Of a DNA stretch of 64,000 nucleotides, positions 11,067 through 11,967 are shown piece after piece. The stretch comes from a virus. A program made the translations under genes and the position numbers. How positions within the stretch are numbered: position 1 is the stretch's first letter; every line of letters begins with the position of its first letter. A model generated the notes under the pieces. The model saw nothing but the letters and a program-made list of their open reading frames with translations, made no database searches and was not told the DNA's origin. The stretch spans positions 1 to 64,000 of IMG/VR virus record IMGVR_UViG_3300040856_003015. One strand, 5' to 3'.

Positions 11067-11967
11067 AACTAAACTCTACTCTAGCGATTTCATCAAGTTT
11101 TTGCATCACTTCATCAGTGAAATATACTTCAGGATCTTTTAGGATTTGTTTTGCGTAAATCTTTTTACCATTCATTTCATAACGACCTGCTACATTTTTC
11201 CAAAGTCCGCCAATCTCACCGAGTTCAAGAAGACCATAATATCTATCAAGACCACGCTCATCATAATAAAGACGAATTTCAACTTCTTTATTCTCCTTGC
11301 TCAAGCGCGACTTGTGAGTCTTTGCCTTGATAAGATTGCCGACGACTTCTGTTCCATCCTTCTCTTTCTTTTTGCTGAGATAGATGATTGTACTTGCTGC
11401 ATACTTGAGACCAGAATTGTGAGACACGACACCATTACCAAGAATATAATGATGTTCTCCTTCAACTGTGATGTCATAAACATCCTCAGTCTTTATTTTC
11501 TTGATAGACTTTACAATTCGTTCCATGCCACCTCTTATACATATAGATTTGATAGTATCTGAAGGTAATAACTCAGTAACGGATTTCCATTCATAACCAT
11601 CTCCAGTATCTACTAAAAACTTATGTTCGCCAGAACATCTAATAGTTTCTCCATCTTCCAATTCCAATTCATAAACATCTTTATCGGTGAAATGGAAAGT
11701 GTCAGTAACTGATGAATAACCAAACATAGTTCTCACTTTGTCACCAACTTGAATAGATTCAATAGGAATAGAACCATTTTCTGTTTGTATCTTAGTTCCC
11801 GCAACTAAACAACCCCCACCCATTTCCTTTGTAGGGACATAAGAGTTATGAGAAAGTGTCCCATCTTCAAAAATATAGTGATGAGCATCTTCTATTTCGA
11901 TATCATAAACATTAGTATTCTTTTTTTTAATTTTTTCAATTTTTTTAATTTTGATGCCAATAGTCAT
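11056..11967 (-). CDS. uvsX: UvsX C-terminal precursor: IntC + 11-aa extein + mini-intein + UvsX C-terminal extein
   Basis: IntC ending SHN, SYVPTKEMGGG, second intein C...SHN, then SGLKYAASTIIYLSKKKEK; GGAG SD upstream. Confidence 0.93.
   Translation of the reverse strand: MTIGIKIKKIEKIKKKNTNVYDIEIEDAHHYIFEDGTLSHNSYVPTKEMGGGCLVAGTKIQTENGSIPIESIQVGDKVRTMFGYSSVTDTFHFTDKDVYELELEDGETIRCSGEHKFLVDTGDGYEWKSVTELLPSDTIKSICIRGGMERIVKSIKKIKTEDVYDITVEGEHHYILGNGVVSHNSGLKYAASTIIYLSKKKEKDGTEVVGNLIKAKTHKSRLSKENKEVEIRLYYDERGLDRYYGLLELGEIGGLWKNVAGRYEMNGKKIYAKQILKDPEVYFTDEVMQKLDEIARVEFSYGS
11416..11811 (-). mobile_element. Contiguous mini-intein (132 aa), no endonuclease
   Basis: Block A CLVAGTKI, block B RCSGEH, block F VYDITV, block G SHN followed by Ser. 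Confidence 0.93.
11845..11967 (-). mobile_element. Split intein C-fragment (41 aa)
   Basis: Basic N-terminus KIKKIEKIKKK, block F VYDIEI, block G SHN followed by Ser. Confidence 0.92.

Follow-up and report, generated by a model that had tools for sequence, protein, structure and literature searches.

The recombinase gene uvsX of an uncultured marine phage carries two inteins eleven codons apart, and we consider it likely that these splice independently, intein 2 in cis and intein 1 in trans, to give normal UvsX from a gene that was invaded twice. The DNA analyzed here, referred to as the window, comprises 64,000 nucleotides (positions 1 to 64,000) of record IMGVR_UViG_3300040856_003015, a 74.9-kb IMG/VR virus sequence that is a 39%-complete fragment. 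Its nearest cultured relatives are the T4-like cyanomyoviruses S-SM2, S-SCSM1 and P-TIM68, with uvsX DNA about 80% identical, and the phage is an uncultured marine T4-like cyanomyovirus. As seen in Table 1, uvsX lies on the minus strand and is distributed over two open reading frames (ORFs), 12617-13555 and 11056-11967. An intein N-fragment (IntN) closes the first ORF and a C-fragment (IntC) opens the second at the same locus, which is the layout of a fractured gene; the window holds these two uvsX ORFs, and not three separate ones with a middle ORF of the form IntC-extein-IntN. The second ORF encodes, in order, IntC1, the peptide SYVPTKEMGGG, intein 2 and a Ser followed by the remainder of UvsX. 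A neighboring minus-strand ORF (13624-15012) corresponds to the C-terminal part of DNA polymerase gp43, beginning mid-protein.

Table 1. Coordinates of the uvsX locus in the window
Feature	Position	Strand	Length	Details
UvsX N-extein	12887..13498	(-)	204 aa	Met at 13498; listed ORF begins 19 codons earlier, at 13555
IntN1, N-fragment of the site-1 split intein	12620..12886	(-)	89 aa	After ...DVIG; stop 12617-12619
HNH homing-endonuclease gene, free-standing	12020..12655	(+)		Antisense to uvsX; Pfam HNH PF01844
IntC1, C-fragment of the site-1 split intein	11845..11967	(-)	41 aa	Ends HN
Micro-extein SYVPTKEMGGG	11812..11844	(-)	11 aa	UvsX 208-218, 9gbg numbering
Intein 2, whole mini-intein	11416..11811	(-)	132 aa	Site 2, after ...MGGG; Cys1, SGEH, HN, Ser+1
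UvsX C-extein	11059..11415	(-)	119 aa	Stop 11056-11058; 9gbg residues 215-333, E=5e-35

The two insertion sites were placed by alignment to 9gbg, an intein-less UvsX of 334 residues. Residue 1 of 9gbg pairs with query residue 20 onward (E=7e-75), the N-extein matches the Pfam RecA family PF00154, and homologous ORFs begin MDFL.... On the N-extein side the alignment extends to ...VVGSY (209), and on the C-extein side it resumes from MGGGS (215). The residues flanking site 1 are therefore Gly207 and Ser208, those flanking site 2 are Gly218 and Ser219, and the insertion points lie 33 bp apart. Since 9gbg aligns on both sides of both sites, the 11-mer is genuine UvsX sequence; it is uninterrupted in 9gbg itself and, as A/SYVPTKEMGGG, in 61 uvsX alleles without intein found on IMG/VR contigs. 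The spliced product would measure 204 + 11 + 119 = 334 residues, the length of the 9gbg chain. [quoted passage not shown]

Both inteins open with a Cys right after the extein Gly, both end in the junction ...SHN/S with Ser as the +1 residue, and the Gly-1/Ser+1 context is identical at the two. Block B reads TGEH in intein 1 and SGEH in intein 2, a Ser for Thr exchange, and SGEH/SGDH is kept across the whole site-2 clade. The Pfam profile Intein_splicing (PF14890) matched the C-chain with 68.1 bits (cut-off, 35.8), and IntN1 alone with 30.4 bits, under the cut-off as expected of half a domain. The gp41-1 intein (6qaz) matched C-chain residues 51-184 at E=2e-13 and IntN1 at E=7.5e-7. By motif and profile criteria, both elements are class 1, gp41-1-like mini-inteins. 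They share 61 of 125 residues (49%; z=22 against 500 shuffles), and a comparison within the record pairs intein 2 with IntN1 (E=8e-20) and with IntC1 (E=5e-6). Taken by halves, 40 of 87 residues are identical between the IntN parts and 57% over the last 24 residues of the IntC parts, an overall range of 46-57%. Counting charged residues on the sequences revealed a polarity common to both, in which IntN ends with an acidic strand and IntC begins with a basic one. When 56 inteins were placed in a tree, intein 1 fell in the site-1a clade (support, 100/99) and intein 2 in the site-2a clade (95/91), with an unresolved backbone on which the two clades may or may not be sisters, as a 33-bp jump of a single intein would make them; by pairwise score, these are each other's nearest foreign clade within the sample (47% identity). 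Because they belong to separate clades that are each other's nearest, the two inteins are best described, on this tree, as relatives within one family and not as a recent tandem duplicate. The anatomy agrees with a preliminary description of this DNA made from its letters, which had set the limits of IntC1, micro-extein and intein 2 exactly (11416-11967) and had read the order IntC1 / SYVPTKEMGGG / IntN2-IntC2 / S-UvsX-C, as ORF 11056-11967 confirms. Its motif pairs, quoted as a sign that the inteins are related, are exact, and it was right about Ser at +1 of both, about three exteins on two chains joined by two splicing reactions, and about the 11-residue micro-extein in loop L2, which the 9gbg alignment identifies as native.

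The free-standing gene between the halves of intein 1 encodes a protein matching PF01844 at 23.8 bits (cut-off, 21.4), together with weak I-TevI/NUMOD1 DNA-binding matches. A homologue with 43-94% identity occupies the same antisense position in the 16 IMG/VR contigs that carry a split site-1 intein, some of them from phages with a UvsX of only about 52% identity. The 3' ends of the plus-strand HNH gene and the minus-strand IntN1 overlap by 39 nt (12617-12655), and the same antisense overlap of 39 nt is kept in the contig L082 (4232-4270).

Natural alleles were surveyed for occupancy of the two sites. Besides the site-1 contigs, IMG/VR holds 14 contigs (L003-L016) with a split site-2 intein and an HNH gene on the same strand, and three split inteins accompanied by no endonuclease gene (L085, L111, L001). 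Relatives of IntN1, 80-93% identical, occupy the same site in nine IMG/VR contigs, and an IntC1-type fragment stands directly before SYVP...GGG-SGLKY in alleles without intein 2 (P0068, P0074, L082 and others). The protein databases contain whole inteins at site 2 (P0053, P0125) and at site 1 (P0139, P0150, P0184), and among metagenomic proteins every occupancy combination of the two sites is present. In none of the 525 cultured-phage records with a UvsX match was the intein part covered. A degenerate DNA signature, HN-S-Y-V-P-x5-G-G-C, has one match in the window and none in the viral, metagenome and genome contig collections with the window's own record left out; as the signature recognizes the window, the collections searched hold no such double loci. 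In L001 (4037-4492), the site-2 intein is split by a stop, four codons and an in-frame ATG, with no endonuclease gene, and its IntN bears an extra tail of about 30 residues, common to the middle pieces P0044-P0050 described below.

Several observations concern uvsX and its surroundings outside the two sites. A third site is occupied at the P-loop, GK/T, in L091/L109 (one IMG/VR contig), in which the N-extein match is broken between residues 64 and 65 by about 1.47 kb; the same uvsX also carries the site-1 split intein with its antisense HNH gene (L091, about 1916-5434). The proteins P0017, P0136, P0144 and P0167 consist of the IntC of a P-loop intein, the middle of UvsX and the IntN of an L2 intein. 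L012 and L013 (5332-5493) contain a partial extra UvsX C-extein (residues 65-118, 70% identity) about 850 nt 3' of the fractured uvsX, which may be a recombination scar. In L019 (2919-4283), uvsX has no intein, and the gp41 helicase gene after it closes with the classic N-fragment of the gp41-1 split intein, this being the fractured gp41 of Dassa et al. (2009).

The C-chain architecture itself, IntC followed by a micro-extein, a whole intein and the C-extein, was found in seven proteins, that of the window and six more (P0051, P0131, P0134, P0161, P0185, P0230), with micro-exteins of 8-14 residues. Furthermore, at least 14 predicted proteins are stand-alone ORFs of nothing but IntC, micro-extein and IntN (P0044, P0047, P0048, P0050/P0122, P0140, P0149, P0152, P0158, P0164, P0179, P0222, P0238, P0247). 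Pairwise identity among four of these middle pieces is 61-66%, and all catalytic residues are kept. Such genes would imply recombinases assembled from three pieces, a layout read here from predicted proteins only.

To trace the origin of the double allele, its parts were compared with singly occupied ones. The part of the locus that starts with the N-extein and ends with IntC1, IntN1 and the HNH gene included, shows 88.7% identity to L082, a site-1-only allele from which intein 2 is precisely absent. Against the split site-2 intein of L010, the DNA of intein 2 is 100% identical and that of the micro-extein 97%, whereas the exteins are 75-85% identical, with 67-87% in most 30-nt bins. Between the window and L010/L012, the intein has a dS of 0 and the exteins have one of 0.6-1.7. 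The identity of intein 2, the divergence of the exteins and the resemblance of the remainder to L082 together indicate that intein 2 is a recent arrival in an allele whose site 1 had been fractured before. The sole intein difference from L010 is a 658-bp HNH cassette at the canonical endonuclease site, whose first bases form the N-chain stop codon in L010. The direction of the change between contiguous and split intein 2 would be a gain or a loss of the homing-endonuclease gene, the junctions being compatible with either. Recent entry into a fractured allele agrees with what was predicted for haloarchaeal MCM genes, where neighboring inteins occur together if alleles with a single invasion are common (PMC10643990).

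Selection was estimated from the substitution ratios of the alleles. dN/dS is 0.135 for IntN1, 0.056 for IntC1, 0.060 for IntN2 and 0.061 for IntC2, with 0.06-0.17 for the exteins, and both inteins are thus under purifying selection. Intein dS is below extein dS, as expected of elements that move between genomes. The +1 residue of site 1 is Ser in 27 of 27 occupied loci and in 25 of the 76 empty ones, the other 51 having Ala (49) or Gln (2). An intein that needs its nucleophile, or carries it along, would be expected to give such a distribution, and homing of the site-1 intein seems either to introduce the Ser codon or to depend on it. The codon given as 11812-11814, followed with its homologous codon through 103 loci, encodes Ser whenever the site-1 intein is present and Ala in most intein-free loci. 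Double occupancy recurs in many diverged lineages with the catalytic residues kept. Altogether, purifying selection, the covariation of Ser+1 and the recurrent doubles argue for productive, independent splicing.

Structure predictions were then considered. In AlphaFold2 models of the C-chain, intein 2 folds as an autonomous domain (pLDDT 90-96), and IntC1 is mostly coil (pLDDT 58-71), as expected of a split-intein fragment awaiting its partner. The predicted complex of IntN1 with the first 200 C-chain residues scored 0.51, the best control reaching 0.01, although passes at or below 0.60 are rated weak; the runs share at least 77% of contacts, with a partner pLDDT of at least 77. Of 78 solved complexes, 51 attain the mark for this score, as do 2 of 108 mismatches, and scores past the mark of no more than 0.60 came from only 5 of the 78 solved complexes and from all 4 passing mismatches. 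Likeness to solved split inteins may have caused the predicted IntN1/C-chain score, which does not identify the IntC that is bound. For a stand-alone middle piece (alignment A1), one of five AlphaFold2 models was confident (pLDDT 71.7, pTM 0.68), the others lying at about 40, and that single model packs the non-cognate IntC against IntN, too ambiguous an outcome to establish a fit between non-cognate halves.

The data above show the anatomy, homology, selection, recent transfer and natural occurrence; splicing activity, orthogonality and the homing route belong to a mechanism that we infer. Two gp41-1-like mini-inteins of one family would have invaded the L2 codons of uvsX at points separated by 33 bp. 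Site 1 (...DVIG/S) would have received the split intein with the antisense HNH gene between its halves, and site 2 (...MGGG/S) a whole, endonuclease-free intein. Intein 2 would fold alone and splice in cis, probably soon after translation, and IntN1 of the N-chain would associate with IntC1 of the C-chain and splice in trans, the product being a normal UvsX of 334 residues. The two reactions could take place in either order, as the native residues still flank both inteins. The allele would have arisen by successive single invasions, in which one fractured at site 1 gained intein 2 along with the micro-extein codons; the donor may have been a phage with the same site-2 intein DNA, with or without the 658-bp HNH cassette. 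Against this reading of independent splicing stand the homology, common charge polarity and identical junction residues of the two inteins, and the presence of IntC1 and IntN2 during translation before IntC2 emerges.

Artifact and decay are two alternatives to a functional double gene. An assembly chimera might have joined a site-1-only and a site-2-only allele of co-occurring phages, as samples of the same kind commonly contain either single allele and intein 2 is identical to the intein of other phages. Nonetheless, the same C-chain protein of 303 residues is present on 19 contigs, to which a near-identical Logan member is added. Contigs from independent runs, not marked as possible sources, span the junctions, one of 1834 nt (X14, equal to 11263-13094) with 2 mismatches and one of 1184 nt (X8, equal to 11374-12557) with 0, and diverged doubly occupied proteins exist independently; we thus give a chimera practically no chance. 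Run X14 also contains an intein-less allele of 90-95% similarity. In all, the locus was detected in no fewer than 14 DNA runs (about 13 studies, 2020 to 2025). Exact-match contigs running through IntC1, micro-extein and intein 2 are found in two metatranscriptome assemblies; RNA libraries may hold DNA, and these contigs are no more than a hint of expression. The gene could also be decaying, with one intein inactive and uvsX dead, for block B of intein 2 has Ser for Thr and a second recombinase gene could lie elsewhere, given the incompleteness of the record. Against this, all nucleophiles and the HN pairs are intact without frameshifts, dN/dS is 0.06-0.14 across alleles, the SGEH/SGDH form is typical of the site-2 clade, and the allele is widespread in time and space, which makes decay extremely improbable.

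The remaining alternatives concern cross-pairing between the two inteins. In SICLOPPS, cyclization uses both halves of one intein, arranged as IntC-peptide-IntN with a free IntN. The preliminary description had likened the C-chain to this design and had proposed, as the alternative to strict orthogonality, an alternative-splicing switch or a source of cyclic peptide. The likeness holds for the order of the parts, and relatives encode exactly such stand-alone genes, but IntC1 and IntN2 are halves of different inteins, non-cognate homologues from the site-1a and site-2a clades. Moreover, IntN2 is not free in the window, where it continues into IntC2; a free IntN occurs only in relatives such as P0044, P0047, P0048 and P0050. 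In natural alternative protein splicing, IntN1 would pair with IntC2, or IntC1 with IntN2, at a frequency that matters; the outcome would be UvsX truncated in L2 and/or cyclo-SYVPTKEMGGG, serving regulation or some other function. The sequence contains no feature that would impose orthogonality, because the halves are homologous, have the same charge polarity and share identical -1/+1 residues; homologous natural DnaE split inteins cross-react (10.1101/546465), and the one confident middle-piece model (pTM 0.68) shows a non-cognate packing. However, four of the five models of that piece are unconfident, IntN2 is covalently joined to IntC2 and predicted to fold autonomously, IntC1 and IntN2 sit in well-supported separate clades (100/99 and 95/91), and two invasions explain the double arrangement. 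Stand-alone middle genes also persist at 61-66% identity to each other with intact catalytic residues, and efficient cyclization in their phages would mean that no UvsX is made. The separate clades, the joined IntN2 and IntC2, selection and the two-invasion origin therefore leave the proposed switch or cyclic-peptide source unsupported, and we hold such a function to be very improbable. There is likewise only a slim chance that a cross-pairing fraction yields L2-truncated UvsX and/or the cyclic 11-mer in a ratio tuned by the supply of the two chains. If it did, this would be natural alternative protein splicing, and a stand-alone IntC-micro-extein-IntN gene would be a natural cyclization module. 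Imperfect orthogonality without function, in which cognate splicing dominates and a minor loss of precursor to dead-end or skipped products is tolerated, is unlikely but deserves somewhat more credence. It draws on the same homology, polarity and junction features and on the assumption of Pinto et al. that homology is negatively correlated with orthogonality (PMC7090010), and selfish elements need only be tolerable; yet the many lineages with this arrangement and the abundance of the window's allele both suggest that any cost is small. Orthogonality, as independent splicing would have it, is favored by the separate clades, by the persistence of doubly occupied and three-piece alleles and, in the window, by the covalent link between IntN2 and IntC2.

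Each part of this arrangement belongs to a known kind, namely the fractured gene (PMC2677866), neighboring inteins (PMC10643990), the L2 target (PMC3239194) and the IntC-peptide-IntN design (PMC7210297). Dassa et al. (2009) described fractured genes with split inteins, among them gp41-1/-8, NrdJ-1 and IMPDH-1, and a free-standing endonuclease gene between the halves (PMC2677866). The uvsX locus resembles these in its two adjacent ORFs with IntN and IntC ends, its endonuclease between them, its marine T4-like phage and its 6qaz-like inteins. It differs in that the host is uvsX, which PMC2677866 names only as a neighbor of fractured gp41, in that the HNH gene is antisense, and in the second, whole intein 11 codons downstream. 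Turgeman-Grott et al. [quoted passage not shown] Those inteins also occupy nearby sites in one conserved replication/repair gene, with all occupancy states in nature. However, they are whole inteins with nested endonucleases on an archaeal chromosome, whereas in uvsX one is split with a free-standing endonuclease gene, one lacks it, the gap is 11 residues and the inteins are homologous. Engineered tandem protein trans-splicing (Khoo et al. 2020, PMC7210297) likewise places a short peptide between an IntC and an IntN, but its two inteins are unrelated and orthogonal by design. In recA, the codons of the L2 loop are targeted by the Mycobacterium leprae RecA intein and by a recA intron of phage 0305phi8-36 with I-Bth0305I; the same loop of the RecA fold is thus a target of mobile intervening sequences, although elements and hosts differ and no double occupancy is described there (PMC3239194). 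The literature searched on uvsX inteins, three-piece split-intein genes and closely spaced inteins, with most subscription journals outside its range, contains no description of the arrangement; a fractured uvsX with its HNH gene in antisense, a micro-extein of 8-14 residues left by two homologous inteins, the combination of cis and trans splicing, and a family of natural stand-alone middle pieces were not found in it.

Overall, the DNA-binding loop L2 of phage recombinases emerges as a double landing site for inteins, at which an enzyme piece of 8-14 residues is left between two self-splicing elements or is encoded alone between intein halves. Intein 2, near-identical in the forms that have and that lack the endonuclease cassette, would represent the transition between contiguous and split inteins proposed by Dassa et al. 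(2009), caught in progress. The locus is a natural counterpart of engineered tandem trans-splicing, but with mutually homologous inteins; because the natural pairs are homologous, they provide an existing system in which the determinants of orthogonality between related split inteins can be tested, and three-piece protein ligation might draw compact orthogonal pairs from them.
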